Of a stretch of DNA of 64,000 bases, positions 29,966 through 50,400 are shown piece by piece. Within the stretch, counting starts at the first letter, position 1. Every line of letters begins with the position of its first letter. Source of the DNA: an uncultured Verrucomicrobiae bacterium (GTDB taxonomy: Bacteria; Chlamydiota; Chlamydiia; Chlamydiales; Rhabdochlamydiaceae); the NCBI GenBank assembly GCA_963718565.1, contig OY970364.1, positions 1,856,001 to 1,920,000 of the forward strand, given 5' to 3'. The position numbers were made by a program, and so were the translations under genes. Under the pieces are notes generated by a model. That model did no database searches. It was not told where the DNA came from and worked only from the letters and a program-made list of their open reading frames with translations.

Positions 29966-30917
29966 TTGGAAATGGCTTCTATGAAACGCTGTGCGGTCTT
30001 CAGCTGTTTAGGTCTAGGAGATGGGTTAATCGCTCTTGTCCTATCTAATAACCTTTACCTCAATGGTTGTGAGGTCACAACGTTCCACCCCTTCCTGGAA
30101 AATCTTCAAGAATGGTTTCCCCATCTCCCTTTGCGGCCTTTTCCGCCATCTGAAGACTTTGGGTCGAGCTTAAAAGAGTTTGATCATTTCTTTTTAATTT
30201 ATGAAAAATCTTCATGGATGCAGGCTATTTTAGCCCACTGTCAAAAGCATTGCCTGGAACGCACGACCGTGCTCAATCCCATTGCGACAGCCAACCGCGA
30301 TTATCCCTACTGGGAGCAAGGGCGTTTCGACGGGGCCCGTTCCTTTGTGGAGAACCTCTATGCTTTTTGTAAGGATGTGCTAAGATTTACCGTTGTGACC
30401 AAATCCAATGGCATGCTCATTCCTGAGCACGTTCGACCCCGCCATCTTAAAAATCGCATCATTTTTCATCCGACAAGCTCGCGCATGGGAAAGAATTGGG
30501 CGAGTGAAAAGTATCTTAAGCTTGCCTCTGAGCTAAAAGCCCGAGGGTTTGCTCCTGCTTTCATGATGACTCAGGAAGAGCGCCAAGAGTGGGACCTTGA
30601 ACATTCTTGATGCCCCTCTATTTTCAGGGCAATCCGAAATGGCCGCATTTATTTGTGAATCAGGCTACATGATCGGCAATGACTCGGGAATTGGGCATCT
30701 TGCATCCTGTCTAGGTCTGCCAACGGTAACGATCTGCCGCAGCGAGCAGAATGGAAGATTTTGGCGGCCTGCATGGGCACCGGGAAGACTGATCACCCCC
30801 TCCAAATGGATTCCTAACCTCAAAGGACTGCGATTAAGAGACCAACATTGGAAAAAATGGATCTCCGTCCGGAGAGTGCTTGATAACTTTCTTGACCTTG
30901 CCCAAAATCAATGCTGA
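29966..30917 (+). pseudogene. GT9 (heptosyltransferase-like) glycosyltransferase split by a frameshift near 30597
   Basis: GLGDGL and HPTSS..KNW in ORF 29966-30610; IGNDSGIGHLA in the overlapping ORF 30597-30917, in a different frame. Confidence 0.75.
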
Positions 30918-33583
30918 TGTTCTGCAAAACTCTTTTGCAAAGCAGGAATTGCTTTTGTTCTTAGGAAAGTCTTGCCCTCTGTGAATAGCTGATTCATTTC
31001 CTGGATAATCGCATTCAGAGAGATACCCTCGCTTGGCGTGCCAAAAAGAATTTTAGGGATGCTTTGCAATTGAAACCCTGCTTGAAGTTCAGGACACCAT
31101 TCAAGAGCATCGAGATTATTAATGATTTTAGAGGACACACTTTTATTGTTGACTTCCACAGGATAACGCACTTTATAGGAAAGCTGTTGCATAGCCCCTG
31201 ACAAAGACCCCATATCTATTTGGAGTTGCTCGGAGAGTATTGTCAATTCATGCTGAATGCTAATGTCACCTTGAGTATAGTACTCGATGGAATGCAAAAT
31301 GTTCTCCATGGATTCTTGCAATTGCAACAAACTCCAAACGGTCCACGTTGAAAATGTCCGGATATCTTTGGCTTTATTCATTTGACGGATGCCGGCTTCA
31401 AGCATTTTCAAGGCAGCCACTGCCTGTTTCACCTGTAAATAGACGGGATGATGTCTATTGAAATTTGAGAGAAAACCTTCGAGTGTTTGCTGAATTTCGC
31501 CAAACATTTTTTCCTGCAAAGGTTGTTTTTTCACTTGTACTTCTTCAAAATGACCTAAGGGGAGCGCAGAAAGGTGTTTAGAACTTTCAGTCTCTCCCAA
31601 CATCACCTCTATTTGCTTGCACGTGAGTTCTATGATTTCTTCCGCACTTTTTTTCAGGTCTTTCTCGGAATAGGGATGGCCTTCGGCTATTTTGAATAAT
31701 TGCTCCAAAACGGAAGGGATTTTCACTTGAAATGTTGTGGCCGAATTCCACCTTTCATGTTCAAGATAGAAATAGCGAAACCAATTATTAATTAAAAAAA
31801 GTTGTCCCACAATCCAAGGATACTTAGTGGAGTTGGGATCAAATTTTGGATCAAATTTTTGATGATAAATCTTTAAATTATGTGTCCTTTCAAAAGGTTC
31901 GCCCTCTTCTTTTAAACAGTGCCGGTAGGTCTGTTCCATTGTTTTTTGAGCAAAATTTGCGACAGCTGCGATCAAGCTTAAATCATCCGATGGGGAGAAT
32001 GAAGAATTTTTTAAACCATTTTGGATGACAATCAAATGGCCTAAATGCCAGATTGCTTGCCTTAAAGCTGGGGAAGGATTTTGATGGAAAAGGGCCGTCA
32101 ATTTTTCCTTCAGACGCTCTATCGAGCTAACTGGGGTGGCAATTTCTATGCTGGGTGAAGGCACATTTGCCAGGGAAACCTGCTTTTTTTTCTCTTTTTT
32201 CCCTGTGGAGGTTTTAGGGACTTCTATTGTTGCTTTTTGTTTAGAGGCTTTTATATTCTGTTTTTGTTGCTTTCCTTTTGTTCCCCGTGCTCCTTTTTTT
32301 CTTGAGGAAGGTTGTTTTGAACTTTGACTCAGCTCAGCCAATAACTTCCTGGCACATTCTTCAGCGTCTTCACTATTATGGGGATGGGGTATGATGGGTC
32401 CGAAAAATAAAGGTGGGATCTCTCCTCGAGTCTGATAGGCATTCCATTTATCGTTTGCCTTCCTGATTCCTTGCAGAATAAAAGACAGATTTATTAAAGG
32501 AATGTCTAGATAGCTGTATTTCAATTGAACACATTTAGAAAAGTTAAGCAGGGGCTGAACCAAAGCATGACTAGCAGTCACAGAAATTAATTCATTAAGG
32601 AGATATGTCTGTTTTGGATTTGGATCGTTTTTTATTTTTTCGATATAGGGTTCAAAGTCTTTTGTTCTGTCGCAAACAGTAATCATAATTTTTTCAAATT
32701 TATCTGTCAATTTAAGTATTTGATCATTGTCGTTAATGTTCAATGAGGAAAGTTGATTCAAAAGGCTTTTCATTTCTCTTGCATAGTATTGGACTAATGA
32801 TGAAACAGGAATTGACTTCTGTGCTTCATCCATAGCAGTTACAAGAGATAATTGCGTTTCCAACTTTTCATCTTCCAATGGCTTTAATTTATCCAGCATT
32901 TCTGGAATAATCCAGGAAGCATTTTTAAGTAATTGACGTAATGCTAATGCGCAAGCATCTGAAAGTACATGATATGGGATTGGGCTTATTATCTTAAAAG
33001 TATTTTTTGGATCTCCTGATTTGTGGAGTTGATATGATTGAGGAACGACATCGTCTTTACCGTTTATTATCGCAAGTAGTGTGACATTACTCATATATTG
33101 AAGGTTAAGAATTTTTGACCACGTCACAATATTCTCATCAAAACCTTCAGGAATAGCATTAATAGAATTTAATTTAGTCTTTAAGAGGCCTAAAAATTCT
33201 TGGATTTGATGTTCTCCTTTCGCCCAAATTTGAGTTGAGTTCTTGGCAAGAAGGCGCTTAAGTTTTAGATATTCCTCATCAAGTTTTTCATCTTTCTGTT
33301 CAAATTGATTTTGATAATGTTCTACAAGGTCATCTATATATGTAGTAAAAGTTGTTATAGTTGTGAATAAAAGGTGGACTTCATTGAAATTCTTTTTGTG
33401 ATCCAGTGTAGTAAGAAGCTTGCACGCCTCTTGAATCCGTTTATTAACAAATCCTCTAAAAAGAGGATCAACCACTGAAGGGTTTGGAAGATCAAACCTC
33501 ATCTTGATCCCAGGATATACGTCCCATGTTGGAACGAGAAACTGTGAAGCGACATTTGAAAGTTGGATATTGTTTGTGCTCAT
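30908..33583 (-). CDS. 891-aa protein with a Lys-rich linker and two C-terminal HEPN-like domains
   Basis: FAQKTMEQ...ERTHNL...WFRYF and LQESMENIL...QHEL...KVRYP match the QxxE...HxL...RYP pattern. Confidence 0.6.
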   Translation of the reverse strand: MSTNNIQLSNVASQFLVPTWDVYPGIKMRFDLPNPSVVDPLFRGFVNKRIQEACKLLTTLDHKKNFNEVHLLFTTITTFTTYIDDLVEHYQNQFEQKDEKLDEEYLKLKRLLAKNSTQIWAKGEHQIQEFLGLLKTKLNSINAIPEGFDENIVTWSKILNLQYMSNVTLLAIINGKDDVVPQSYQLHKSGDPKNTFKIISPIPYHVLSDACALALRQLLKNASWIIPEMLDKLKPLEDEKLETQLSLVTAMDEAQKSIPVSSLVQYYAREMKSLLNQLSSLNINDNDQILKLTDKFEKIMITVCDRTKDFEPYIEKIKNDPNPKQTYLLNELISVTASHALVQPLLNFSKCVQLKYSYLDIPLINLSFILQGIRKANDKWNAYQTRGEIPPLFFGPIIPHPHNSEDAEECARKLLAELSQSSKQPSSRKKGARGTKGKQQKQNIKASKQKATIEVPKTSTGKKEKKKQVSLANVPSPSIEIATPVSSIERLKEKLTALFHQNPSPALRQAIWHLGHLIVIQNGLKNSSFSPSDDLSLIAAVANFAQKTMEQTYRHCLKEEGEPFERTHNLKIYHQKFDPKFDPNSTKYPWIVGQLFLINNWFRYFYLEHERWNSATTFQVKIPSVLEQLFKIAEGHPYSEKDLKKSAEEIIELTCKQIEVMLGETESSKHLSALPLGHFEEVQVKKQPLQEKMFGEIQQTLEGFLSNFNRHHPVYLQVKQAVAALKMLEAGIRQMNKAKDIRTFSTWTVWSLLQLQESMENILHSIEYYTQGDISIQHELTILSEQLQIDMGSLSGAMQQLSYKVRYPVEVNNKSVSSKIINNLDALEWCPELQAGFQLQSIPKILFGTPSEGISLNAIIQEMNQLFTEGKTFLRTKAIPALQKSFAEHQH

Positions 33584-35978: not shown

Positions 35979-36012
35979 GAGGGAATTGCAAAACTCCTCG
36001 CCGCATAAAATC
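35979..36012. repeat. Solo end of a GAGGG-family element
   Basis: TTTA followed by GAGGGAATTGCAAAACTCCTCGCCGCATAAAATC, identical to the first 34 bp of the 25167 copy. Confidence 0.85.
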
Positions 36013-36039
36013 TCCTTAAAAAGCATAGTCAGCGAAGTA

Positions 36040-36207
36040 TACGGCGCGCGGTTAGGTTTGGTGAATTTTGACAGGCTGCGACTTTGCCAAATCGATCCTT
36101 CTCGCTCGCCTTGCTATTCAGCAATGGTCTCGCTCGTTCGGCCGCTTCGCTTCGATTTTGCTTCGTCTCGCAGAGTCAAAATTCGCCAAATCTAATCGCG
36201 CGCCGTA
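36040..36207. mobile_element. 168-bp palindromic MITE with TA target duplication
   Basis: TACGGCGCGCGGTTAGGTTTGGTGAATTTTGAC ... GTCAAAATTCGCCAAATCTAATCGCGCGCCGTA; the empty site GAAGTAAACTG is present in four sister repeats. Confidence 0.92.
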
Positions 36208-36222
36208 TAAACTGTTCGTTTC

Positions 36223-36801
36223 TTAAAGACTCTTTGGCTTCTGCGAACCATTTTTTGCCGCGTTGGCCTGCACAATTGCTCTGGCCTCCTCGTAAGGCTC
36301 ATTTTTAATGTCTTTACCTACGTATGGATGATCCGGGTCATGCGCCAGATAGTAGAGTTTATTCTTGGCGTGGCACACGAACTCTACATCATTATCCGTG
36401 GGATGCTTCCCTCTCTTTTCGAAGGAAATAGTAACACGTGCCCGACTAGGAGGAAATGGGTATTCCCGTAAAAATGGTCTAATCTTTTCATGTGCATTGA
36501 TGATTTGTGCAAACCTCTCGGTAGCCTTCACCTCCAATTCTCTGGCTTGTTCTATCGTTGCGCTTCGATAGGCATCCAGCTGCACCAATATCTCTTCCAC
36601 ATCGTAAGGCATCGCTCCGCCACTCGCACCACATTCGAGTCCATATTCCTTGTACATTTCCTTAATAAACGCAGAGGTCACTTCAGCGACATATTGAGTG
36701 TAAATAGGAGAATCATCATCATCTTCTTCTTTGGCACTCACTTTCAGCTCGATAAATAATGTTAAAACAATTATGACAAAAAAACTAACGCGTGCTACCA
36801 C
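36223..36801 (-). CDS. Putative exported immunity protein, copy 5
   Basis: Signal peptide; paralog of the gene that overlaps the RHS stop; GTG start. Confidence 0.75.
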   Translation of the reverse strand: MVARVSFFVIIVLTLFIELKVSAKEEDDDDSPIYTQYVAEVTSAFIKEMYKEYGLECGASGGAMPYDVEEILVQLDAYRSATIEQARELEVKATERFAQIINAHEKIRPFLREYPFPPSRARVTISFEKRGKHPTDNDVEFVCHAKNKLYYLAHDPDHPYVGKDIKNEPYEEARAIVQANAAKNGSQKPKSL

Positions 36802-36905
36802 TATAAAAACCCTCGTTTTTTCTCAAATTCTTAATGAACTTTGATTGCGCTTCTTGATATGTTCCACCCAAAAAAGCATGATCAGCGAAGTAAACTGTTC
36901 GTTTC

Positions 36906-37487
36906 TTAAAGACTCTTTGGCTTCTGCGAACCATTTTTTGCTGCGTTTGCCTGCACAATTGCTCTGGCCTCCTCGTAAGGCTCATTTTTAATGTCTTTAC
37001 CTACGTATGGATGATCCGGGTCATGCGCCAGATAGTAGAGTTTATTCTTGGCGTGGCAGATAAACTCCACTTCACTGTAAGCAGAGAATCGCTTCCCTTT
37101 CTCTCTAAAGGAAATAGTAACACATGCTCGACTCGCAGGAAATGGGTATTCCCGTAAAAATGGTCTGAGCTTTTCGTGTGCATTGATGATTTGCGCAAAT
37201 CTTTCCGTAGCATTTACCTCCAATTCTCTGGCTTGGTCTATCGTTGCGCTTCGATAGGCCACAAGCTGCACCAATATCTTTTCCACATCGTAAGGCATTG
37301 CTCCGCCACTCGCACCACATTCGAATCCATATTCCTTGTACATTTCCTTGACAAACGCAGAGGTCACTTCAGCGACATATTGAGTGTAAATAGGAGAATC
37401 ATCATCATCTTCTTCTTTGGCACTCACTTTCAGCTCGATAAATAATGTTAAAACAATTATGACAAAAAAACTAACGCGTGCTACCAC
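36906..37487 (-). CDS. Putative exported immunity protein, copy 4
   Basis: Signal peptide; paralog of the gene that overlaps the RHS stop; GTG start. Confidence 0.75.
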   Translation of the reverse strand: MVARVSFFVIIVLTLFIELKVSAKEEDDDDSPIYTQYVAEVTSAFVKEMYKEYGFECGASGGAMPYDVEKILVQLVAYRSATIDQARELEVNATERFAQIINAHEKLRPFLREYPFPASRACVTISFREKGKRFSAYSEVEFICHAKNKLYYLAHDPDHPYVGKDIKNEPYEEARAIVQANAAKNGSQKPKSL

Positions 37488-37592
37488 TATAAAAACCCTC
37501 GTTTTTTCTCAAATTCTTAATGAACTTTGATTGCGCTCCTTAGATATGTTCCACCCAAAAAAGCATGATCAGCGAAGTAAACTGTTCGTTTC

Positions 37593-38171
37593 TTAAAGAC
37601 TCTTTGGCTTCTGCGAACCATTTTTTGCTGCGTTTGCCTGCACAATTGCTCTGGCCTCTTCGTAAGGTTCGTCTTTAATGTGCTTGCCTACATAAGGACG
37701 GTCAGGGTCATGTGCCAGATAATGGAGTTTATTCTTGGCGTGGCACACGAACTCTACATCATTATCCGTGGGATGCTTCCCTCTCTTTTCGAAGGAAATA
37801 GTAACACATGCTCGACTCGCAGGAAATGGGTATTCCCGTAAAAATGGTCTAATCTTTTCATGTGCATTGATGATTTGTGCAAACCTCTCGGTAGCCTTCA
37901 CCTCCAATTCTCTGGCTTGTTCTATCGTTGCGCTTCGATAGGCATCCAGCTGCACCAATATCTCTTCCACATCGTAAGGCATCGCTCCGCCACTCGCACC
38001 ACATTCGAGTCCATATTCCTTGTACATTTCCTTAATAAACGCAGAGGTCACTTCAGCGACATATTGAGTGTAAATAGGAGAATCATCATCATCTTCTTCT
38101 TTGGCACTCACTTTCAGCTCGATAAATAATGTTAAAACAATTATGACAAAAAAACTAACGCGTGCTACCAC
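37593..38171 (-). CDS. Putative exported immunity protein, copy 3
   Basis: Signal peptide; paralog of the gene that overlaps the RHS stop; GTG start. Confidence 0.75.
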   Translation of the reverse strand: MVARVSFFVIIVLTLFIELKVSAKEEDDDDSPIYTQYVAEVTSAFIKEMYKEYGLECGASGGAMPYDVEEILVQLDAYRSATIEQARELEVKATERFAQIINAHEKIRPFLREYPFPASRACVTISFEKRGKHPTDNDVEFVCHAKNKLHYLAHDPDRPYVGKHIKDEPYEEARAIVQANAAKNGSQKPKSL

Positions 38172-38275
38172 TATAAAAACCCTCGTTTTTTCTCAAATTC
38201 TTAATGAACTTTGATTGCGCTTCTTGATATGTTCCACCCAAAAAAGCATGATCAGCGAAGTAAACTGTTCGTTTC

Positions 38276-38866
38276 TTAAAGACTCTTTGGCTTCTGCGAA
38301 CCATTTTTTGCTGCGTTTGCCTGCACAATTGCTCTGGCCTCCTCGTAAGGCTCATTTTTAATGTCTTTACCTACGTATGGATGATCCGGGTCATGCGCCA
38401 GATAGTAGAGTTTATTCTTGGCGTGGCAGATAAACTCCACTTCACTGTAAGCAGAGAATCGCTTCCCTTTCTCTCTAAAGGAAATAGTAACACATGCTCG
38501 ACTCGCAGGAAATGGGTATTCCCGTAAAAATGGTCTGAGCTTTTCGTGTGCATTGATGATTTGCGCAAATCTTTCCGTAGCATTTACCTCCAATTCTCTG
38601 GCTTGGTCTATCGTTGCGCTTCGATAGGCCACAAGCTGCACCAATATCTCTTCCACATCGTAAGGCATTGCTCCGCCACTCGCACCGCATTCGAATCCAT
38701 ATTCCTTGTACATTTCCTTAATAAACGCAGAGGTCACTTCAGCGACATATTGAGTATAAATAGGTGAATCATCATCTTCGTCGACACTCATTTTTTTGGC
38801 GCTCACTTTCACCCCGATAAATAATGTTAAAACAACTATGACAAAAAAACTAACGCGCGCTACCAT
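38276..38866 (-). CDS. Putative exported immunity protein, copy 2
   Basis: Signal peptide; paralog of the gene that overlaps the RHS stop; ATG start. Confidence 0.75.
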   Translation of the reverse strand: MVARVSFFVIVVLTLFIGVKVSAKKMSVDEDDDSPIYTQYVAEVTSAFIKEMYKEYGFECGASGGAMPYDVEEILVQLVAYRSATIDQARELEVNATERFAQIINAHEKLRPFLREYPFPASRACVTISFREKGKRFSAYSEVEFICHAKNKLYYLAHDPDHPYVGKDIKNEPYEEARAIVQANAAKNGSQKPKSL

Positions 38867-38970
38867 TATAAAAACCCTTGTTTTTTCTCAAATTCTTAAT
38901 GAACTTTGATTGCGCTTCTTGATATGTTCCACCCAAAAAAGCATGATCAGCGAAGTAAACTGTTCGTTTC

Positions 38971-39564
38971 TTAAAGACTCTTTGGCTTCTGCGAACCATT
39001 TTTTGCTGCGTTTGCCTGCACAATTGCTCTGGCCTCTTCGTAAGGTTCGTCTTTAATGTGCTTGCCTACATAAGGACGGTCAGGGTCATGTGCCAGATAA
39101 TGGAGTTTATTCTTGGCGTGGCAGATAAACTCCACTTCACTGTAAGCAGAGAATCGCTTCCCTTTCTCTCTAAAGGAAATAGTAACACATGCTCGACTCG
39201 CAGGAAATGGGTATTCCCGTAAAAATGGTCTGAGCTTTTCGTGTGCATTGATGATTTGCGCAAATCTTTCCGTAGCATTTACCTCCAATTCTCTGGCTTG
39301 GTCTATCGTTGCGCTTCGATAGGCCACAAGCTGCACCAATATCTCTTCCACATCGTAAGGCATTGCTCCGCCACTCGCACCGCATTCGAATCCATATTCC
39401 TTGTACATTTCCTTAATAAACGCAGAGGTCACTTCAGCGACATATTGAGTATAAATAGGTGAATCATCATCTTCGTCGACACTCATTTTTTTGGCGCTCA
39501 CTTTCACCCCGATAAATAATGTTAAAACAACTATGACAAAAAAACTAACGCGCGCTACCATCAT
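38971..39564 (-). CDS. Putative cognate immunity protein, copy 1
   Basis: Overlaps the RHS 3' end by 20 bp, a typical toxin-immunity arrangement; signal peptide. Confidence 0.78.
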   Translation of the reverse strand: MMVARVSFFVIVVLTLFIGVKVSAKKMSVDEDDDSPIYTQYVAEVTSAFIKEMYKEYGFECGASGGAMPYDVEEILVQLVAYRSATIDQARELEVNATERFAQIINAHEKLRPFLREYPFPASRACVTISFREKGKRFSAYSEVEFICHAKNKLHYLAHDPDRPYVGKHIKDEPYEEARAIVQANAAKNGSQKPKSL

Positions 39565-42500
39565 ACAACCCCCGCTTCTCTCTCAAATTCTTAATGAACT
39601 TTGATTGCGCTCCTTGATATGTTCCACCCAAAAAAGCATGGTCAGCAAAATAGGCTGTCCGCTCTGATAAGGTCGAACGGCAAGAGACAAACCTTACATC
39701 GTATTTTGGGTCATTCTTATATTTTAATGCAAACCACCCAGTGACAAAATCTTGTTTAGAATAAATATTGGCTACCTCACGGCCGTATTCGAGGGGAATT
39801 GGCTTTGCTGGGCCGAGGCCAAGAACGTAAAGTTGGTTTTTGAGAAGGCTCCTTTGATCCTCGGTCATCCCTTTGATTGCATTCCTGCCGACGACTCCGC
39901 CTTCGCTGTGACCGATGTGAAGCCAGAGCAGATCGGGGTTGATCTTGTGGAGTGTTTCAGAAATTGCCACCATGTATTGCCGGGTATTGACAACGGTGGG
40001 GGTGTCCTTGCCTCCTCGTTCCTGGAAGGTTCTTTTACAGTCTTGAATCAGTCCCTGGGTTGCGTTGTACATGCCAAAGATCAGAGTTCCTTCGGAAACC
40101 ATGTTGCCAATGGATTGCACATTTTGAATGAGATCATTCTTGGTTGTGCAAATCCCATTTTGTGTGGTGATGAGTCCAACGGTGGTTCCTTCTGTGGGAA
40201 AGAGTTCGCGAAAGTGCTCCGCGATGTTCACCGTATCTGCTTTTAATTCTTGGGGTGTAAATTGGAGCTTATGCCAATGGCCACAAGAGACGACCCAATC
40301 GATGGGGACATCGGATAAAAACGCTTTGCAGGGCAAAATGCTCCTCATAGGAATGTCTTTTGCCGGCAGGATGGCGTGAAGGGGTACTTCCAGGCGCAAG
40401 TTATTTTGGGGAAAGAGCGGGCGGGAATCGAGGCCAAAGAGATCAAGTCGGTTTAAGGGGCTGTTGAGGACATAGACATAGAGGTTGGGCCCGTCTGTAA
40501 AGCCTGAAGGATCGGGTGTGAGCCATCTTCCCAGGGCGGGATCATAAAACCGTTGTCCAAAGAAAATGAGATGGCCCATGGATCTTTTTGAAGAGAACCG
40601 CCATGGATTCAAGGGGCTGGAGTCATTTGTTTCTCTGCCAAAGGCATCGATGTGATACGACTCAGCGATCTTTTGATCTGCAGAAATCAACGCAATGATG
40701 TTGCCTTGGAAATCGTGCAGAGGTGCATAGGCGATCTCTTCGATCTCAATGGCAACACTCCCTCCGATCTCTCCTTGCAAGCCGAGGCCGATCACTTTGA
40801 GTTGGGTAATGGTGCCGCATGCGTTGATCGTGCCGATTTCTTGGGTTTTGTCGTAGAGATAGAGGGTCTGAACAGCTTCGGTTTGCTCAGAAATCAGGCG
40901 AGAAAATGAGTCATAAAAATAGAGTGTCTTTTTCGCATCGGGATGAGTAATGGAGATGAGACGACTCAAGGCGTCGTAGGTGTAATCTGTAACTCCCTCA
41001 GAAGAGATCCTTCGAGTCGGATTGCCATTGCGGTCGTACTCAAGAGAGTAGTCGGGTCCAGAGAGGATCTGGTTATACTCGTTGATAGAACAATGGATGG
41101 GATTGCCAAGGGAGTCGAATGCATACTGTTCGTCCCCTTCTCGAATTAGTTGATTTAGGGCATCGTGAGCGTAGATTTTATCTCCCAATAGGGAGTTTTT
41201 TGTCTGAGTGACCAGGCTTGAAGGGCCGTAGGAGATTGTCTGATGCAACCAGGGAGAATGTTGGTCACTGGGTCTTTCCAGAAGATCATGGGTTGTATTC
41301 AGAGTGCCAATGTTGTGAATGAGGTCTTCTTGCATCACGTGGCCGTTGGGATCGAAATCACAATAGCGATGGGAGTAAAGAAGATCTCCTCTGGAAGAGA
41401 GTCTGGAAACTTCCGTGAGATGTCCTCCTTTGTAGAGGTAAGCGACGGAAGAGAGGTCAGGTAAAGTGTAAGCTACACATCGGCCGTGATGGTCGTATTG
41501 CCATGTGAAGATGAGGCCATAGGCATTTGTTTCTTTCACAATCTGGCCAAAGGCATTATATTCCCGCTGCAATCGTGTGTGATGCACAAGATCGGTGACT
41601 TCAACAGGATTAGGGCCATTTGCATAAGCATACTGATAATGGATTGTTCCATCAGAGCTCTTTGTCTCTATGAGGCGATCGATCCCATCGTAAACGGAAT
41701 CGATGGCAACATCGCTAGGTAAAAGACGACTTTTGACCCTGCCTTTTTCATCATAGGTAAAATGAGTGGTCTTATCGCTTCCTTCACTTTCTGTGATGAC
41801 GCGGCCCATGGGATCATATTCCCATCGCACAGAAATTTGATTCTTAGGAGTGTGGTCATGATAGACGGTGGAAGCTCTTCGGGCCTGGTTGCCGGCCTTG
41901 TCATAAAACAGCTCTTCTTTCGAAACGATATTTCCATGTGGATCTTTCTGGATGCGGCGGCTGATGCGGTTAAGAGCATCCTGTATTTCGATAGTGGAGT
42001 TTCCTCGAGGGTCAATCGTCGTCTTTTGAAACACTCGCTGCCCTAAAGGATTTTCTGTTTCGCTATAGAGGAATTCTGTCTGATTCCCTAGGGGATCGAC
42101 ATGGCGGGTCAACCTAGATTCTCTATCGTAGGAAAAGAGGTCGGTGGCCTCTCCTTGAGAGGTCATCCGGACTGCTTGTACTTTTCTGTTCTCGGCGTCA
42201 TAGGAAAACCACATATGATTCTCAATGCGGCCATCCGAGGTCTCTTCCCGTTCTTCGATGACTCTGCCTCCGACATCATGGATCTGAATGTGGGCGATAT
42301 CTGATTCCATTGTCTTTTCGAGAAAGCCCAAGGAGTCATAGACATAAGTGGTGACTTTAGATTCTGCTTGCTCAGCGATCTTCCTTCCCGTGCCGTCATA
42401 CGTGTAATAGGTAGTGAGGCCGTTGGGGTCGGTATAAGAGAGGAGGTGGAAAGCGTTATAGGTCCAGTTTTCGGCGCTGAGAAGTTCTCCTTTTGCGGAG

Positions 42501-44950
42501 TGGGTCTTTTTAGAGACCATGCGTTGGAACATGTCGTAGAGATAATCGATCTGTGTTCCATCGGGATGGATCGTTTGTGCGAGAGTGCCGTCTTTGGAGT
42601 AACGATGGGAAACCGTGGTTCCATCCGCTTGGATGATCTTCACGGGTTTTCTCAAGGTGTTATAAAGCGTCTGGGTTGTTCCTCCTGCTACCACGGATGT
42701 CGAACTGATATTTCCTTGCAGATCGTATGCGAATGTCACGACGGGAAGATAGGAGTTGCTTTCTGGATCGAGGGAAGTGGGAAACTGGGTTCGGATACAT
42801 TTCCCAAATGCGTTGTAGGCTTGTTCTGTAGCATTGCCTTTGGAGTCAGTTTGCGATAATAAATTTCCATGAGCATCGTAGTGCGTAAAAGTCTTTTTGA
42901 TTGTGCCTACGTGATCGGATTCTTCCACACATGCAGGTCTTCCCGCTGGGTCATAGGTAAAGGTCTTACGAGGAAGGGAGACTTCTTTTGCAAAGAGAAG
43001 GTTGCCTACACTGTCATAGGAGTAAGTGTTCTCTTGGCCAAGCGGTGTGGTTTTACGGATCACATGTCCTTGAGGATCGTAATCGGTATGGATCGTGTAA
43101 CGATGGACACCTGCGGCATCGAAGACATTTTCTGTGATGACACGATATTCACGAGAATAAGAATAGCCGATTTTTCTTAAGGGAATTTCGGCATGGGAAG
43201 CCATGTCGAGATAGGATTCTGTCAGGGAGCGGATGAGCCCGGATGGGGGATCGAGATCATAACGTTTGATCTGGCGCTCGGTGACCTGATTTAAGTTATT
43301 GGGGTCGGAAGAATCTCCGTCATCAGTGATCTCTGTGATAAGCAAGTGATCTTCATTGTAAAAGAAAAATTCTCGAATGAAGATCTTCCCATGGTAGGAG
43401 GTAAATTTAGCTGTGGGAAGATCGGTATCATTTTTGTAGGTGTAAGTATAAGTGAGTCCATTTTCTTCCTCTTCGAGAGTAGGGATGTTGAATCGAGGGA
43501 GGTAGTCGTACCGTTTGGAGTAATGTTCTGCATGGGCAAGAGAGCCGTCACCGTTTAAGGAAAAAGGCCCCGATATAGCTCCGGTCAGGGATCCCCATAA
43601 GGTTTCATGGACGACATTGCCATTGTTGTCATAATGGAAGACTTTGGAAAAATGAGCGCGATGCTGTCCATCGAGCATGGCTTTAGCTTTCAGGCGATCT
43701 CCTTCCCAGATGAATTTTAAAATGGAAACGACCTCGCCTCGCTCATTGCAATACTCGATAGATAAAAGGTGTCCGGCATCATGAGTGTAACGGGTAAGAT
43801 GACCTGAGCTATCGCGCACTTCTGTCACTCCAGGACGATAGGAGAATTGTGCAAAGGTAAGGACTTCTCCGTGAGGGCCAATCGGAGCCTCAAGAAGGTG
43901 GACTTTATCGATCTCAAAGGGCTTCTTCTCGGGTTCTTCTGCCCATTTTTCCGCTTTTTTCTCATTGGGAGAAGTGTAATACTTGGCTTCGAATTGGAAC
44001 TTGCCTCCTAGATCCATCCGCCTGATCCGGGCGCCGATCCTTTTGCGCCCTTGAATATAAGCGATCCCTTCTTCTGCGCGGTGGCTGCTATGTACGCCGC
44101 AGATGTAGTCAGTCCCTTTAAATTCCATTGTATTGTATTGAAAAGATCTTCCATCGGATGTCTTTAAGCCCAGGACAAAAGGAGACTCTTTTTTAATCAG
44201 TTCCAGATTCATCCATGAAAAGGTCTTCGTTTTGGAAGGGTTCATGAGAGACACATTTTTAAGGCGATTATGATGATCATAGTAATAGTGAATCTTGTGC
44301 TGGCTTGGCAGCACTTCCTCACTTAAATGGTAACAGCATTTTAGTCGTCTTTCATTTCGTCTCCCTCGCCAACGATGAGTGTCCCAATGATGGAAGTCTT
44401 TGCCTTTGTAGGTGCGGGATCCGCCATTGGGAAGAAGCAAGATGGCAATCCCTTTTTTGGGGTGCAATTCGAGGATATTATTGGCGACATTGCTCTTGGC
44501 GCTTAAATTTCCGGAACATTGCCCAAATCCCTTGTCCGGCTTGAAGATAAGAACGTGATCGCTCTTTTCGTGATTGTAGGAATAAGGAACGAGATTGCCG
44601 CTAGGTTCGGGAAGATAGATCCGGAAGTTTTTCGGCTTGATCGCAAGATCGACCCACAGATAAGTGTGAGGAAGAAAATTCCATCCTCCTTGGATCGCAA
44701 AGCCTTCTCGTTCTGCTTTGAGCTCTGCATTCAACTCGCGTGGCTCCAATGCCCCTGCGCTGCAATATGTGCGAAAAATAGGGAGAGGTTTAGCTCCCCC
44801 GATCACACCATCTTCTAAGCAGAGGTTTAGATTCCCCGTGATCACATTGACGTGGTGAAAAAGCGTAGGGTCTTCATCATCAGAAAAAAGTTGATCCCAG
44901 TCAGCACGTAGAGAGGAAGTAAAAATGAGGAAGAGGAGGAGTAATTTCAT
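39545..44950 (-). CDS. RHS/YD-repeat polymorphic toxin with an N-terminal signal peptide and an alpha/beta-hydrolase-like C-terminal domain
   Basis: YD repeats; core motif RFYDPALGRWLTPDP...NSPLNRLDLFGL; tip contains HIGHSEGG, SKQDFV and DHAF. Confidence 0.92.
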   Translation of the reverse strand: MKLLLLFLIFTSSLRADWDQLFSDDEDPTLFHHVNVITGNLNLCLEDGVIGGAKPLPIFRTYCSAGALEPRELNAELKAEREGFAIQGGWNFLPHTYLWVDLAIKPKNFRIYLPEPSGNLVPYSYNHEKSDHVLIFKPDKGFGQCSGNLSAKSNVANNILELHPKKGIAILLLPNGGSRTYKGKDFHHWDTHRWRGRRNERRLKCCYHLSEEVLPSQHKIHYYYDHHNRLKNVSLMNPSKTKTFSWMNLELIKKESPFVLGLKTSDGRSFQYNTMEFKGTDYICGVHSSHRAEEGIAYIQGRKRIGARIRRMDLGGKFQFEAKYYTSPNEKKAEKWAEEPEKKPFEIDKVHLLEAPIGPHGEVLTFAQFSYRPGVTEVRDSSGHLTRYTHDAGHLLSIEYCNERGEVVSILKFIWEGDRLKAKAMLDGQHRAHFSKVFHYDNNGNVVHETLWGSLTGAISGPFSLNGDGSLAHAEHYSKRYDYLPRFNIPTLEEEENGLTYTYTYKNDTDLPTAKFTSYHGKIFIREFFFYNEDHLLITEITDDGDSSDPNNLNQVTERQIKRYDLDPPSGLIRSLTESYLDMASHAEIPLRKIGYSYSREYRVITENVFDAAGVHRYTIHTDYDPQGHVIRKTTPLGQENTYSYDSVGNLLFAKEVSLPRKTFTYDPAGRPACVEESDHVGTIKKTFTHYDAHGNLLSQTDSKGNATEQAYNAFGKCIRTQFPTSLDPESNSYLPVVTFAYDLQGNISSTSVVAGGTTQTLYNTLRKPVKIIQADGTTVSHRYSKDGTLAQTIHPDGTQIDYLYDMFQRMVSKKTHSAKGELLSAENWTYNAFHLLSYTDPNGLTTYYTYDGTGRKIAEQAESKVTTYVYDSLGFLEKTMESDIAHIQIHDVGGRVIEEREETSDGRIENHMWFSYDAENRKVQAVRMTSQGEATDLFSYDRESRLTRHVDPLGNQTEFLYSETENPLGQRVFQKTTIDPRGNSTIEIQDALNRISRRIQKDPHGNIVSKEELFYDKAGNQARRASTVYHDHTPKNQISVRWEYDPMGRVITESEGSDKTTHFTYDEKGRVKSRLLPSDVAIDSVYDGIDRLIETKSSDGTIHYQYAYANGPNPVEVTDLVHHTRLQREYNAFGQIVKETNAYGLIFTWQYDHHGRCVAYTLPDLSSVAYLYKGGHLTEVSRLSSRGDLLYSHRYCDFDPNGHVMQEDLIHNIGTLNTTHDLLERPSDQHSPWLHQTISYGPSSLVTQTKNSLLGDKIYAHDALNQLIREGDEQYAFDSLGNPIHCSINEYNQILSGPDYSLEYDRNGNPTRRISSEGVTDYTYDALSRLISITHPDAKKTLYFYDSFSRLISEQTEAVQTLYLYDKTQEIGTINACGTITQLKVIGLGLQGEIGGSVAIEIEEIAYAPLHDFQGNIIALISADQKIAESYHIDAFGRETNDSSPLNPWRFSSKRSMGHLIFFGQRFYDPALGRWLTPDPSGFTDGPNLYVYVLNSPLNRLDLFGLDSRPLFPQNNLRLEVPLHAILPAKDIPMRSILPCKAFLSDVPIDWVVSCGHWHKLQFTPQELKADTVNIAEHFRELFPTEGTTVGLITTQNGICTTKNDLIQNVQSIGNMVSEGTLIFGMYNATQGLIQDCKRTFQERGGKDTPTVVNTRQYMVAISETLHKINPDLLWLHIGHSEGGVVGRNAIKGMTEDQRSLLKNQLYVLGLGPAKPIPLEYGREVANIYSKQDFVTGWFALKYKNDPKYDVRFVSCRSTLSERTAYFADHAFLGGTYQGAQSKFIKNLREKRGLYDGSAR

Positions 44951-45571: not shown

Positions 45572-47467
45572 ATGAAATTGTTTCAATGGATGATCTTCAG
45601 AGTCCTATTTTCTCTTCCTGTGTTGTTAACGGGTGGATCGCTATACTGCACTCGGCCTGAAACTCGCATACGTGCTAACCCAAATCCAGACGAGAGAATT
45701 TACCCCGTCTCTCAAATAAAACTTGAATACGATACAAGCCATCCGGAACATCTTCCGATTGAAACATTGCAGCACATTGAAATCCTCCTATACGCACAGG
45801 AAAATATTCTTTTTGGGTCGGATCAGAACCATCCAGATGCTCGCCAGGTAAAAATGACGATCGATGAAATCAATCATGCCAGCGAAATCACGCGCATCTC
45901 TGATAATGCACTTGCAAAGATCTTACAGGCAATCATAGCGTATTTTAATCAGCAGGATATGCATTGGACTGTCGTCTATATCCCCAGTTCGGAGATCGCT
46001 GAGAATGGCGACGATGTGCGCCTCATGGGAGACACAACACTGACTTTGGTCATTTCGACCCCCATTGTAAAAAAAGTTTCTGTGCGCTATGTCGATCCTG
46101 ATGATCCTTCGAAAGAGCTCAATAATTCTCGATTGAGTCAAAAAATTTGCGACCATCTTCCTGCTTCGCTTCCAGACCCCTCGACGGGATATCCGGGAGG
46201 ATTTATCAACTCAAATCTTCTGAACAACTATTTACATTCATTAAATCGGCATAGAGAAAGAAGAGTAGATTTAGAAATTGGGCCTACAGAAATTCCTGGC
46301 GAGGTCGCTTTTGATTTTGTCGTGACGCAAAAAAGGCCTTATCATTTTTATTTCAATGCTAATAATAATGTGCCAAAACCGATTCATCGCTGGCAGGAAT
46401 CGGCAGGCTTCATCCATACACAAGTTTCTGGCAATGATGACATTTTTAAAGCCAATGCCTCGACCGACAGTTTTGATCAATTTTATTCCTTTGATGCTTC
46501 CTACGAAGCTCCACTTGGAAATTCCATCGGAAATCGCTGGCAGATTTTTGGAAGCTATAGCCGCTTTATCTCGGCTGAATTTGCTCTTCCTCAAAATTTG
46601 TTTGTCGGCACCCAAGCCATCGGAAATCTTGAATTCATCAGCACTATTGCCCAATGGGACAAATTGTTTCTAGATTTCGTAGCAGATCTTCAGTATCGCC
46701 ATATTCATAACAGAGGGCATTTCTTATTTTCCTCCGCAACTAAGAATTTTCTTTTGCCAGGAATTGCACTCAAGGCAATTCAACTGAGGCGCGAGACCAA
46801 GCTGATCGTTTCTTTATCTCTGCAAAGCACCATCAGTTCTTTATTTTGGGATGTGCGGAAACAGTTAGATAATTTGGGGAGAAGGCACTTGAGTCCAAAT
46901 TGGGGGATTCTTCAAGGAGGGTTCTATGGAAGTTTTTATCTGGAGCCGTTATTTCATGACAATAAGAAAGTGCGCCGGCTTGCTAACGAGATTGTTGTCG
47001 TCATGCAGCTGCAAAATGCCTTTAATCAACGATTGATCCCGCAGTTGGAAGGGATTTTAGGTGGGCTGTATACGATTCGTGGGTATCCTCAATCCACAGT
47101 TGCTGGCGATAATCTGTATATGGGTTCCGTCGAGTATCGATTTCATTTGCCCGGGGTTTTCAAACCCAACCCAAATGCCCGCACGAAATTATTCAAAAGG
47201 CCTTTTCGCTGGGCGCCTGCTGAACCTAAAGGCCAAGCGGATTGGGACTTGCTCTTTAGAGCTTTTTACGACGTCGGAGAAACCACAGTAAATCAGCGGC
47301 GCTCCTCAGAGCACGATCATCTTCTGATGGGCGCCGGCCTAGGAGCAGAGCTTGTGGTGTGGCAGAATATTTTTATCCGAGGGGAATGGGGAAGAGCCTT
47401 CCGTTCTGCGAATGGGATTTCAGAAGGGAATAATCAATTCTATTTTTCTTCTACGGTCATCTTCTAA
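45572..47467 (+). CDS. ShlB/FhaC/HecB-like (TpsB/Omp85) outer-membrane transporter
   Basis: Signal peptide, LGGLYTIRGYP (VRGY-type motif), FYDVG, terminal Phe. Confidence 0.8.
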   Translation: MKLFQWMIFRVLFSLPVLLTGGSLYCTRPETRIRANPNPDERIYPVSQIKLEYDTSHPEHLPIETLQHIEILLYAQENILFGSDQNHPDARQVKMTIDEINHASEITRISDNALAKILQAIIAYFNQQDMHWTVVYIPSSEIAENGDDVRLMGDTTLTLVISTPIVKKVSVRYVDPDDPSKELNNSRLSQKICDHLPASLPDPSTGYPGGFINSNLLNNYLHSLNRHRERRVDLEIGPTEIPGEVAFDFVVTQKRPYHFYFNANNNVPKPIHRWQESAGFIHTQVSGNDDIFKANASTDSFDQFYSFDASYEAPLGNSIGNRWQIFGSYSRFISAEFALPQNLFVGTQAIGNLEFISTIAQWDKLFLDFVADLQYRHIHNRGHFLFSSATKNFLLPGIALKAIQLRRETKLIVSLSLQSTISSLFWDVRKQLDNLGRRHLSPNWGILQGGFYGSFYLEPLFHDNKKVRRLANEIVVVMQLQNAFNQRLIPQLEGILGGLYTIRGYPQSTVAGDNLYMGSVEYRFHLPGVFKPNPNARTKLFKRPFRWAPAEPKGQADWDLLFRAFYDVGETTVNQRRSSEHDHLLMGAGLGAELVVWQNIFIRGEWGRAFRSANGISEGNNQFYFSSTVIF

Positions 47468-47482
47468 CCTGTATTTTTAATG

Positions 47483-50400
47483 CTATTCGCATGCCGCTTC
47501 TGGAACGAAGTTCACATTGCCGCTGATCAGAATATTCGAGTCAACATTCCCTGAAAAATTATCGACATTGATCGTGGTAGATCCGGCTCCTGTGCCGGAG
47601 GTGATTGCGATTCCATTTGTTCCAGGGGTTGCTCCGGCGACAGTGTTGTTAAAAATACTCGCACAGATATTCGAACTCGCTGAAAAATTTCCAAAGACTC
47701 CAATGCCGGTTGAACCACTACCGCTTCCTGTCAAGATGTTATTGTTATTGATGATGGTCGTCAACTGAATGTGATTTGCTCCTGGTTGTACAGCGATTCC
47801 CAAAGTCATGTTTGATGAAGTTGTAGCGACTTGGTTATCGCTGACAATGACTGTGCCTGCATTTGGAAAATTGGACACATTGGCTAGTATTCCATGCGAA
47901 CCTGATGTTCCAGTAGTGTTAGCTATAGCATTTCCAATGATGCTTACTGTTGCATTCGACCATCCGTCTGAATAGTTGATGCCTTGCGCCAAAAAATTTG
48001 CGACTTGATTTCCAGAAATTAGAACATTTCCTGTAATGTTAGGGCTAGCTGGGGAGAGCACATCGATCGCTTCACCAAAACCAGAAATGCTGTTATTGAG
48101 AATCTTTAATTGCATCGATCCTGTGTTAAAAACTTCTATCCCAGATCCTGAATTAGCTTGGCTGTATATTTGATTGTTGGCGATTTTTACGTTTCCAAAT
48201 CCAGCAACATTTATTGCTCCAAAACTTGCATTTCCAAATATAGTATTATTATTAATTTGGGTTCCATTAATCGATGCTCCAAATATTCCGTCAGAACTCG
48301 AGAGATTAATATTAAATCCCGATACTTCATTTCCATTGGCAAGGGTAACGACATTTGTACCCGTATTTGTGATCAGGGGAGAGGTATTTGAAAACGCGGG
48401 AATTTTAATGGTGCCTTTTGTCGTTGCAATCTTATGCGCGATGCCAGAGCCAAACAATGTTTGGCCATTCTGGAGAGAGATCCCCAGGTTCATTCCTGTG
48501 GACGTCCCATCGCCTGGGAACACATAGATCATATCATTGGGCCCGGATGCATTTTGAGCCTGCACTAATGTTGGAAACGGACTTTCAAAGGTGCCATTAG
48601 AACTGCTCGTATTGTTGACAAACCAGACTTTCCATGGATCGTCTGTGGCTGGGTTGATCGCCTTTTGTTTTGTAAAGACCCGTTTAATGACCGGGATCTC
48701 AAAGCGATAAGGCGAGAAAGCGGCGCGAGAAAGAGCGAGATTGATCTGTGAAGAGCAGTCGTTTCCTTTGCGTTTAATTCTTTTCCCAAAAGGGAGGTTG
48801 ATGGCAACAGAGCCTTGGATGACGCTTTTGAAGAGATGGTCGTAAGAATAGGAGGCTTCTAAAGAGACATATTCTTTAAAGCGCCCTAAGAGGCGCACCT
48901 TTCCTCCCCATGAAGAGGCATGAGAAGAGGAAAAGTAATAAGATCCAGCTCCCGTGTACAAGTCATATTTTGTGCTTTGGGTGAGATGTGCGCCAATTTC
49001 AGCATCTCCGCCAGTCATGACATCTCTTTGCTTAGCTTTCAATAGGATATCATTGCCCTTAAATTGATCGAAATCATAGTCGTACTTATGGCTTTTTCGA
49101 TCGCCAACTGGAAAATATCCATTCATGCGATATTCCATGCGTTTCCCTAGCAGTTCAATTCCCGGTCCTAATTGCTGGGCTGTGAGGTGATGGTTGTCCT
49201 GACGGACATCATAATAAAGGTAGTAGCTTAAGATATGCTCGAGGGACGGAAAGAAGGAACGCCCCCCTATCCCTGCATTCCCAGCAAACTTTCCATTGTC
49301 AAAGACATGGCCCCGCAGATCAATAAAAGGCATGAAGTAACTGTTGCCGTTGTAAATGCCGAATCCTTCCAGAGTAGTATATCCGTCCTTATATCCCACT
49401 CCTCTTGCTTCAGTGTGCCGCAGCCCAACATGCATCATATGGAAGGGCGTTTCACATTTTTTTGGATAAAAGGGTTGAGAAGGCGGATTGGGGAGCTTTT
49501 GCGTTTCTGGTTGAGAAGATCCTATAACATCTAGCTGTCCAGAATCTTCATTTTCTCGCTGAGCTTGAAGGTTTTCGAATTCTATTTTTTTTTGGCTAGC
49601 GCTGGATTTGCTTCCACTATTTTCCTCTGTTGAACTGTTGTTTTGCGGCGAGTTTTCAGACATAGAATGATGATTTTGACGACGGATGTGGCGATCATAT
49701 GTGGAAGAAGTTTCCTTACTGTTTGATGGTTTTTGGAATGGAGTTGAGCCTATGGCTTCTTTCTCATTCGTATTGGGGTTGTTTGCACGATCCTTTTCAG
49801 AGAGTTCTCTGGAAGGAGCTGGAATGCTTGGAGATAAAGAGGATTCTTTGCGGGCAAAAGGAGCAAAATATTTCCCTTTTCTCTCACTGGGATTGTGAGG
49901 GTTTCGTTTGTTCTTCGGAGATGCTTTACTGTCGATAGGCTCTTTCTCAATCGACTCCGTTGCAGAATCTTCAATAGGGAAGCTAGGGAACTTGCTTTGC
50001 TCAGCAATTTGTTTGCTATTGTTCTTCGGAGATGCGTTACTGTCGATGGGCTCTTTCTCAATCGACTCCGTTGCAGAATCTTCAACAGGGAAGCTAGGCA
50101 ACTTGCTTTGCTCAGCAATTTGTTTGCTATCAGAGGGCTTCTCAACTTGTTGAGGAGTTTCTGCGCTTTTGCTGAGTTTTCCATCTGGAGAAGCTGTGGG
50201 ATCTGACTTTTGTTTTTCAGATAATTGTTTGGATTGTAAATCTTTTGATAACAGTTCTTGTATCAGTTGCTCTGAATTTGGCTTAATAGGGGTGCTCTCT
50301 TTCGCGGGAGCCTGTTTGTTCATGACCGAATTTTGAGGGCCAAGGGATTTGGGGAATTTGGAGGGTTGCTTAGCTCTTTGCTTTTCTCTTTCCATTCTCT

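Follow-up and report, generated by a model that had tools for sequence, protein, structure and literature searches.

A mosaic array of five tandem paralogs behind an RHS toxin gene of a Rhabdochlamydiaceae bacterium: a probable polyimmunity locus shaped by recombination

By what route could five tandem genes behind a single toxin gene come to carry different combinations of the same few sequence blocks, and what might these genes do? The question is raised by a locus in a 64,000-nucleotide (nt) stretch of DNA (positions 1,856,001 to 1,920,000 of contig OY970364.1, assembly GCA_963718565.1; hereafter the window). The source is a Rhabdochlamydiaceae metagenome-assembled genome (MAG), which consists of one contig of 2,284,058 bases and is 95% complete. 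On the minus strand of the window, the listing of open reading frames (ORFs) contains an RHS ORF of 1801 amino acids (aa; 39545-44950), followed by five paralogous ORFs of 192-197 aa (36223-39564), which are repeated with a period of 683-695 nt and are named here c1 to c5, reading away from the toxin (Table 1). An earlier note on this DNA, made from the sequence alone, had placed the five paralogs behind an RHS toxin and had described them as varying in three two-allele blocks (A, B and C), combined in a particular order. All of this was recovered: the ORF listing agrees with the RHS/YD and Rhs-core domain matches of the toxin, the ORFs and the protein alignment show the motifs exactly as quoted, and the alignment gives the same order of copies, namely A1B1C1, A1B1C2, A2B2C1, A2B1C2 and A2B2C2 (111, 112, 221, 212 and 222). 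The share of type-1 blocks declines away from the toxin (3/3, 2/3, 1/3, 1/3 and 0/3), and protein identity to c1 is 98% for c2, 89% for c3, 94% for c4 and 86% for c5. The open frame is intact in all five copies, as is the native toxin/immunity start junction of each. In our reading, this is probably a homogeneous polyimmunity locus behind an RHS toxin, where unequal crossover and gene conversion drive the evolution of the tandem paralogs.

The mosaic is sharpest at the DNA level. The coding region contains 61 parsimony-informative sites, which follow only three patterns and form contiguous runs: 11222 (12 sites, at positions 4-114 plus one at 183), 11212 (34 sites, at 175-441) and 12122 (15 sites, at 463-528). 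The pattern switches 4 times along the gene, compared with a mean of 36.0 (minimum 19) in shuffled data, and 0 of 20,000 shuffles were equally clustered. A recombination test of the kind proposed earlier was run on the five copies as a score resembling the pairwise homoplasy index (PHI); incompatibility was 0.099 vs. 0.377, with 0 of 20,000 shuffles as low. The four-gamete test was failed by C vs. A and by C vs. B. Taken with the clustering, these results uphold the earlier claim that the copies arose by recombination between two parental alleles. Clock-like mutation cannot account for the spatial clustering of 12 and of 34 changes, which argues for more than one recombination event. Smaller departures are confined to single copies. 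Only c5 has retained a four-site patch at 364-376 (A122P and C126R) together with sites 552/558 (pattern 11112); since both states of the 364-376 patch occur among relatives, c3 is read as carrying a short type-1 patch within its B2 block. Private sites of c4 lie at positions 148, 150 and 220, with a mixed stretch at 175/183/201.

The two parental types are old lineages, as comparison of their sequences shows. Between c1 and c5 the synonymous divergence is 0.17 in block A, 0.32 in block B (0.64 in its hypervariable patch) and 0.66 in block C, and it is zero between the blocks; the corresponding ratios of nonsynonymous to synonymous divergence (dN/dS) are 0.48, 0.28 (0.41 in the patch) and 0.09. 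B2/C2-like motifs are found in the sequences P0004, P0007 and P0012 (C2 being 100% identical in P0004 and P0012), B1/C1-like motifs in P0006, P0013 and P0017, and P0003 joins a B2-like block with a C1-like block. In the whole-protein tree the five copies nevertheless cluster together (99/95), sister to the second copy of locus L020, a grouping expected if the rest of the gene was homogenised, as under concerted evolution. A toy search starting from a 111 copy followed by a 222 copy reached the observed order in four events (two unequal crossovers and two conversions) or in six crossovers alone, which shows that ordinary recombination suffices for this order, the path found being a possible one.

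Arrays in relatives provide a scale for this comparison. Those of three to five copies show 58-82% nucleotide identity between copies, and two two-copy arrays show 99% (L038) and 87% (L034). The recombination signal is weaker in the relatives' arrays (17, 165 and 533 of 5000 shuffles for L036, L031 and L029, respectively), and the arrays of three to five copies are older than the resident one. Two of these arrays, L029 and L031, lie on two contigs of one MAG and contain pairwise-related copies (L029_1 with L031_2, L029_5 with L031_4, and L029_3/4 with L031_3/1); they could be a duplicated locus or two co-binned strains.

Each downstream copy is preceded by the final 38 codons of a toxin gene (spacers 1-4 in Table 1, in frame except for spacer 3), and every such remnant closes with the native stop/start overlap. 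The four internal spacers are nearly identical to one another, differ from the resident toxin end in about 14% of bases, and retain toxin-family features (GFY.G..TR) seen in the toxins of relatives; therefore, they derive from a second, related toxin allele and not from decay of the resident one. In relatives, no long toxin remnants were found between the copies of L020, L029 and L036, and only approximately 33 nt in L038.

The chimera objection, according to which the mosaics are products of assembly, was checked with short-read contigs of four soil-metagenome runs (X1-X4) of one study, in which 26-35% of the words sampled from the window recur. These runs may include the source sample, and are thus independent of the assembler and not necessarily of the sample. 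Their contigs were compared with the window at an identity of at least 99%, uncovered bins being uninformative. From the final B site it is 22 nt to the first C site, a distance coverable by a single short-read contig (assuming a k-mer of about 31), and all four B-C combinations were present: B1-C2 in record 25 of X4, B2-C1 in record 23 of X4, B2-C2 in record 3 of X1 and record 16 of X3, and B1-C1 in record 7 of X1, where the C side is just 9 nt long. The key incompatibility therefore exists in DNA, and to this extent the mosaics passed the check. The linkage of A to B (nearest informative sites 61 nt apart), the order of the copies and their number lie beyond the reach of these contigs, because the identical stretches appear too long for short-read bridging. 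Spacer 3 appears without its 1-nt insertion in the contigs of X2 and X4. An A-B bridge in record 11 of X2 and a joint in record 5 of X1 were set aside, as they cross identical stretches of at least 33-35 nt and the assumed k-mer is near 31. The contigs of the four runs contain variant joints and letters; the differences from the window may be strain variants of the array or de Bruijn graph chimeras, and they were counted neither way.

The toxin gene matches RHS_repeat of Pfam (3e-58), TIGR01643 (2e-39) and, at residues 1435-1507, TIGR03696 (9.2e-16). Its N terminus looks like a Sec signal in sequence (MKLLLLFLIFTSSLRA, then D). The tip beyond the core (about 294 residues) has no match in Pfam or NCBIfam, and matches to TccC3, YenC2 and Tse5 among PDB sequences are restricted to the first 37 residues of the tip segment. 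Identity of the tip among 17 relatives is 37-75%, and the core is conserved. In an alignment of 18 tip sequences H211, S212 (of the GHSEGG motif), D264 and H301 are invariant, and an AlphaFold model of the tip (predicted local distance difference test score, pLDDT, 83.4; predicted template modelling score, pTM, 0.82) matched alpha/beta hydrolases throughout in a Foldseek search of the PDB (8vb3_A, E 6.3e-6). Because of the invariant residues and because the model matches solely this fold, the tip is predicted to be an alpha/beta serine hydrolase, with S1682, D1734 and H1771 as the likely catalytic triad. The top structural matches (esterases, dienelactone hydrolases, cutinases and Lp-PLA2) span several kinds of hydrolase, so the substrate is not defined by them; judged by the model, the tip is probably lipase-like, i.e., a lipase or an esterase. 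Atlas leads for the tip were the Lipase_3, DUF676 and DUF687 clusters, each with a score below 0.9. A paralogous RHS tip in the same genome matches DUF687 at 8.2e-9 and the resident tip family in hhalign at 97.7%.

Next to the toxin gene, a 631-aa ORF (45572-47467, plus strand) is read divergently from it and shows a weak match (1.6e-5) to the ShlB/FhaC/HecB outer-membrane transporters; its predicted product might serve in the export of the Sec-signal RHS protein. A two-partner-secretion route through this neighbour was considered and dropped, as the gene was not found at the relatives' loci.

The paralogs are most likely immunity genes, as the earlier note had claimed, and this reading draws on their genomic context: the c1 start overlaps the toxin stop, family members adjoin homologous tips in relatives, and two further pairs exist in the genome. 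The closest related loci belong to Candidatus Rhabdochlamydia, Rhabdochlamydiaceae and Parachlamydiales MAGs, and in 15 of 19 such loci a homologous toxin tip is followed directly by one to five members of the family: one copy in L023, L025, L028, L030 and L032 (the last cut by a contig end), two in L022, L024, L027, L033, L034, L035 and L038, three in L020, and five in L029 and L036. In the remaining four loci the tip is partial (L026), the arrays lie at contig ends (L021 and L031), or the family member stands upstream of the tip (L037). The two further pairs in the same genome (L039 and L040, at G000:C1:291585-293368 and G000:C1:865157-870873) belong to the same toxin and immunity superfamilies. 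In one of them a 419-aa hydrolase, which stands alone and matches the tip alignment in hhalign at 97.5%, has a 177-aa family member behind it; the other comprises a 1613-aa RHS protein, whose tip is the DUF687-positive one mentioned above, followed by a 292-aa family member (hhalign 98.9%). Another RHS gene of this genome (1832 aa, L042) has a tip without a match to the resident tip family in tblastn.

The immunity family is represented by 183 database matches at E of 0.001 or lower, with a Pfam domain on none among the 120 matches listed; its Atlas clusters are labeled 'hypothetical' and are commonest in Chlamydiota. It is present in 32 of 41 genomes searched (source genome included) and in 22 of the 24 other genomes of the same bacterial family. 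The 40 relatives searched include no conspecific genome, and the best match has 75% identity. In several relatives (G019:C67, G022:C2, G007:C5, G008:C13, L036, L018 and L019) the family matches fall in open frames of 359-419 aa, whose sequences suggest two fused immunity domains ('polyimmunity proteins').

The model of the immunity protein (pLDDT 81.5) consists of an N-terminal hydrophobic helix, an acidic linker (residues 17-32, pLDDT below 50) and an alpha+beta domain. That the immunity protein begins with a signal peptide agrees with a hydrolase whose site of action is the periplasm or a membrane. In this model the variable patch of block B forms a surface loop between strands (residues 132-145) and block C a hairpin (153-174). 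Block A falls within the predicted signal peptide and the low-confidence linker, and the idea that it matters for specificity is not supported. This location of block A leaves c2 and c4 with one and the same B/C combination in the folded domain, where they differ solely by I50V and E74K of c4, and only four distinct B/C combinations exist there. An assignment of the fold by the best VIA-wide score (Z 7.6, 3ib5_A) was dropped, since scores in this range are common for unrelated models.

These results can be joined into one scenario, which we consider likely. Two old, diverged immunity lineages would have come into tandem, the type-1 module being the resident tip with c1, contiguous with the resident toxin, and the type-2 module having once belonged with a related toxin, now reduced to the 38 terminal codons that stand before every downstream copy. 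Unequal crossover between tandem copies would then have altered the copy number and produced hybrids as well as further copies of the spacer; gene conversion would have exchanged segments in patches of approximately 13 to 450 nt. The bulk of the gene would thereby have been homogenised to identity, which would leave three islands of old divergence (A, B and C), variously assorted among the copies. The paralogs themselves are most likely small Sec-exported proteins that would bind and block the hydrolase in the periplasm.

Several observations weigh against this scenario. Blocks A and B formally fit a single tree, which brings the strict four-gamete minimum down to one recombination event. The stretch 148-220 of c4 fits neither parental type cleanly, and a third donor may stand behind it. 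Three copies switch type within a single 21-nt interval (442-462) in spite of longer identical stretches elsewhere (e.g., 334-392), and random crossover does not explain this shared interval. The order and number of the copies rest on one MAG assembly, and some contigs disagree with it: record 11 of X2 is without the private sites of c4, in record 17 of X3 a copy with c5-type sites has a further unit behind it, and the joint of record 5 of X1 ('goes back 2074') is absent from the window. The immunity protein has no match in Pfam (E up to 10) or NCBIfam, and its fold none in the PDB at E of 0.001 or lower (Foldseek), i.e., no clear structural relative. Finally, no secretion route emerged for the toxin: the Pfam scan of the toxin revealed no PAAR or VgrG, no genome-wide search for secretion genes being made, and a search of the relatives' flanks did not recover the ShlB-like gene.

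Four other explanations have to be set against recombination between tandem immunity paralogs, and two of them question the array or its function. One holds that the mosaics, or the number and order of the copies, are chimeras of merged strains or a collapsed or expanded repeat. The genome is indeed a single-contig MAG, related strains co-occur with it (as seen from variant letters, a 1-nt indel and joints foreign to the window), and the short-read contigs are unable to test the linkage of A to B or the copy order; however, the four B-C junctions recur in independent contigs, private sites of c2 and c5 do so too (record 18 of X3; record 3 of X1 and record 16 of X3), and the frame and junction are intact in every copy, so that we regard an artefact as highly improbable. 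It is at least as improbable that the paralogs are not immunity proteins at all, but assist the hydrolase in the periplasm as foldases or chaperones (the part that Lif plays for lipases) or are unrelated secreted proteins. The position behind a lipase-like gene, together with a hydrophobic N-terminal segment and a linker, recalls lipase-specific foldases, and no homology to named immunity families was found. The lipase foldase Lif is helical, and the approximately 160-aa alpha+beta fold of the paralogs differs from it. The toxin is delivered within an RHS shell. Diverged multi-copy arrays and fused tandem forms such as those of the relatives count as immunity hallmarks in the polyimmunity survey, as far as its cited sections go (Zhang et al., 2012; PMC3482391).

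The other two explanations accept the array and the function and concern what, if anything, was selected. The copies may form a selected combinatorial repertoire, in which the B loop and the C hairpin set specificity and each shuffled copy neutralises different toxin variants of competing chlamydiae. The 22 differing positions of the mature protein fall on the most variable columns of the family (entropy 1.89 vs. 0.94; 0 of 20,000 random sets), the two elements are a surface loop and a hairpin in the model, all five copies retain open frames and native start junctions, arrays of two to five diverged paralogs are common among relatives, breakpoints recur at block edges, and the same case has been argued for EsaG and TipC, at least in the cited parts of that study (Garrett et al., 2022; PMC9484751). 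However, variable columns are also the least constrained, so the entropy result cannot separate neutrality from selection, and, likewise, the modelled B loop and C hairpin fit specificity determinants or, equally, a weakly constrained surface. Any recombining tandem array yields hybrids automatically, and the folded domains of c2 and c4 are almost the same. Prediction of a complex of the tip (residues 38-331 of the segment) with the mature immunity protein (33-197) scored 0.00 with no interface, which speaks neither for nor against. Since dN/dS is below 1 in all blocks (and lowest in C), block A lies outside the folded domain and no interface was obtained, we consider this adaptive explanation rather unlikely. 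Alternatively, the array may reflect a recent tandem amplification for more immunity protein, or neutral drift, the sequence differences being passengers. The copies are highly similar and most of the gene is identical in DNA, the repeat unit brings along a ribosome-binding context, which derives from the 3' end of the toxin gene, and, among the arrays compared, those of three to five copies are all more diverged, only the two-copy L038 and L034 being similar. Against this, two deeply diverged types are retained in three islands despite homogenisation elsewhere, and all four B-C combinations persist in four samples; amplification for dosage or by drift appears quite unlikely. Equally doubtful is a bolder form of the repertoire, in which the array would be a two-loop generator of combinatorial immunity: the B loop would recognise one polymorphic patch of the toxin and the C hairpin another, the two elements would be reassorted by recombination restricted to block edges, and environmental chlamydiae would wage contact-dependent warfare in shared host cells with Sec-exported RHS lipase toxins. 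If so, the toxin-derived spacer would offer each new copy a ready-made site of translational coupling, and a single cell would resist several toxin variants.

Recombination between tandem immunity paralogs, the explanation we prefer, has close parallels in known systems. Strings of the immunity genes esaG and tipC are reported, in the cited parts of the study, to evolve by homologous recombination between conserved blocks, which alters copy number and sequence, and toxin-gene fragments within such arrays are described there for tspA (Garrett et al., 2022; PMC9484751). Like those strings as they are described there, the resident locus has non-identical tandem immunity paralogs beside a polymorphic toxin, conserved blocks that flank variable regions, hybrids, and probably also shifts in copy number, attributable to homologous recombination between paralogs, and embedded toxin fragments. 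Unlike them (they belong to Firmicutes and to LXG toxins of the type VII secretion system), it is found in Chlamydiota with a Sec-signal RHS protein, its toxin (alpha/beta hydrolase) and immunity families are unrelated to theirs, and it has only two parental types and a far higher identity between copies. Since the immunity protein has no homology to EsaG (DUF600) or TipC, with no Pfam family found at E up to 10, and since the toxin is an RHS protein, the locus is an analogue of these strings and not a member of their group.

Homogeneous polyimmunity loci and fused polyimmunity proteins have been proposed as a back-up against toxins of non-kin; in the cited sections of that survey, extended loci (at least four genes) are reported only from certain proteobacteria, bacteroidetes, firmicutes and actinobacteria, and as a rule no toxin gene lies next to them (Zhang et al., 2012; PMC3482391). 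The resident locus resembles these in being a tandem array of one immunity family, 'extended' with its five genes, and in the fused forms of its relatives; relative to that account, it differs in that the array begins inside the 3' end of a toxin gene and occurs in Chlamydiota. Thus, the arrangement is not new in kind, since both polyimmunity arrays (PMC3482391) and their recombination by blocks (PMC9484751) are already described in the sections cited.

Rhs orphan toxin/immunity modules, such as the orphan rhs of Salmonella, arise by C-terminal displacement, and classical orphans keep a part of the rhs core, a complete different tip and an unrelated immunity gene. The locus is like these modules in having a toxin-gene fragment before each downstream immunity gene, with direct repeats that permit recombination with the main gene, and unlike them in that only 38 codons of a related tip are kept and the immunity genes are all paralogs. 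The contrast with known RHS orphan modules drawn in the earlier note is therefore fair, with the qualification that tandem paralogous immunity arrays have precedents, as above. Lipase effectors of the type VI secretion system (Tle) are accompanied by periplasmic immunity proteins (Tli). The locus shares with Tle/Tli pairs an alpha/beta hydrolase toxin with a G-x-S-x-G nucleophile and an immunity protein with a signal peptide, which implies action in the periplasm or on membranes; it differs in that the tip lacks a sequence match to the Tle Pfam families, that no type VI secretion parts are in view, and that the tip is carried by a Sec-signal RHS shell.

A literature search combining Rhabdochlamydia or chlamydiae with Rhs, toxin or immunity yielded no description of such a locus. 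The locus does not reveal a new mechanism. Its value is that of a young immunity-gene array in which concerted evolution and the reassortment of blocks are cleanly displayed, each exchange being easy to read because only two parental types are involved. It also brings extended polyimmunity loci to Chlamydiota, obligate intracellular bacteria whose interbacterial antagonism is little studied, and defines an unannotated pair, i.e., a predicted DUF687-related alpha/beta hydrolase tip and a putatively secreted alpha+beta protein with 183 homologs, which is widespread in Rhabdochlamydiaceae and related Parachlamydiales.

Table 1. Features of the RHS toxin gene and of the array behind it, listed in the direction of reading (the Coordinates column refers to the window).
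Feature	Coordinates	Strand	Description
RHS polymorphic toxin gene	39545..44950	-	1801 aa; signal-peptide-like N terminus, RHS/YD shell, Rhs-associated core to about residue 1507 (...DLFGL)
C-terminal toxin domain	39548..40429	-	about residues 1508-1801; predicted alpha/beta serine hydrolase, GHSEGG motif
Putative immunity paralog c1	38971..39564	-	197 aa, A1B1C1; start overlaps toxin stop by 17-20 nt
Spacer 1	38867..38970	-	in-frame remnant: final 38 codons of a toxin allele related to the resident one (KKRTVYFADHAFLGGTYQEAQSKFIKNLRKNKGFYNGSAR, then stop); ends in native overlap with next start codon
Putative immunity paralog c2	38276..38866	-	196 aa, A1B1C2; c2-specific match in record 18 of run X3
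Spacer 2	38172..38275	-	toxin 3' remnant, in frame
Putative immunity paralog c3	37593..38171	-	192 aa, GTG start, A2B2C1; short type-1 patch at 364-376
Spacer 3	37488..37592	-	toxin 3' remnant; 1-nt T insertion shifts frame
Putative immunity paralog c4	36906..37487	-	193 aa, GTG start, A2B1C2; private I50V and E74K
Spacer 4	36802..36905	-	toxin 3' remnant, in frame
Putative immunity paralog c5	36223..36801	-	192 aa, GTG start, A2B2C2; type-2 at 364-376 and 552/558, unlike other copies
Terminal toxin remnant	36018..36222	-	distal array edge, split by MITE; without the MITE, about 35 nt agree with internal spacers (2 mismatches)
MITE-like element	36040..36207	.	about 168 nt; imperfect terminal inverted repeats of about 38 nt, TA on each side; inserted in terminal remnant

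At its distal edge the array ends in a further toxin remnant, which diverges from the internal spacers near 36018 and is interrupted by an element resembling a miniature inverted-repeat transposable element (MITE). An origin of the array by microhomology-mediated tandem duplication, ending at ...ACAGTTTA, was considered and rejected, as this end is the MITE insertion into the remnant. The genome contains 18 near-full-length copies of the element, including that of the array (at least 167 of 173 nt, 90.6-100% identity), as well as many fragments (76 BLAST rows), and record 2 of X1, which covers it, has a depth of 15.4 compared with 2-5 in neighbouring contigs. At 36012 the contigs of X1, X2 and X4 depart from the window and continue in a shared, different sequence; therefore, some genomes of the samples have another neighbour beside the UvrD-like gene, and the RHS locus may be an insertion/deletion polymorphism.

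Within the array, small ORFs of 57-66 aa (36785-36985, 38155-38355 and 38850-39023, minus strand) run out of frame from the end of an immunity gene into the toxin remnant, terminating where this overlaps the start of the next immunity gene. They are unlikely to be genes, but could couple the translation of successive copies. Two larger ORFs of the minus strand lie outside the locus. An 891-aa ORF without a Pfam match (30908-33583) is located between the UvrD-like helicase gene and a glycosyltransferase-like region, and a 1191-aa ORF (47483-51058), also without a Pfam match, has a C-terminal half with five paralogs elsewhere in the genome (41-58% identity).

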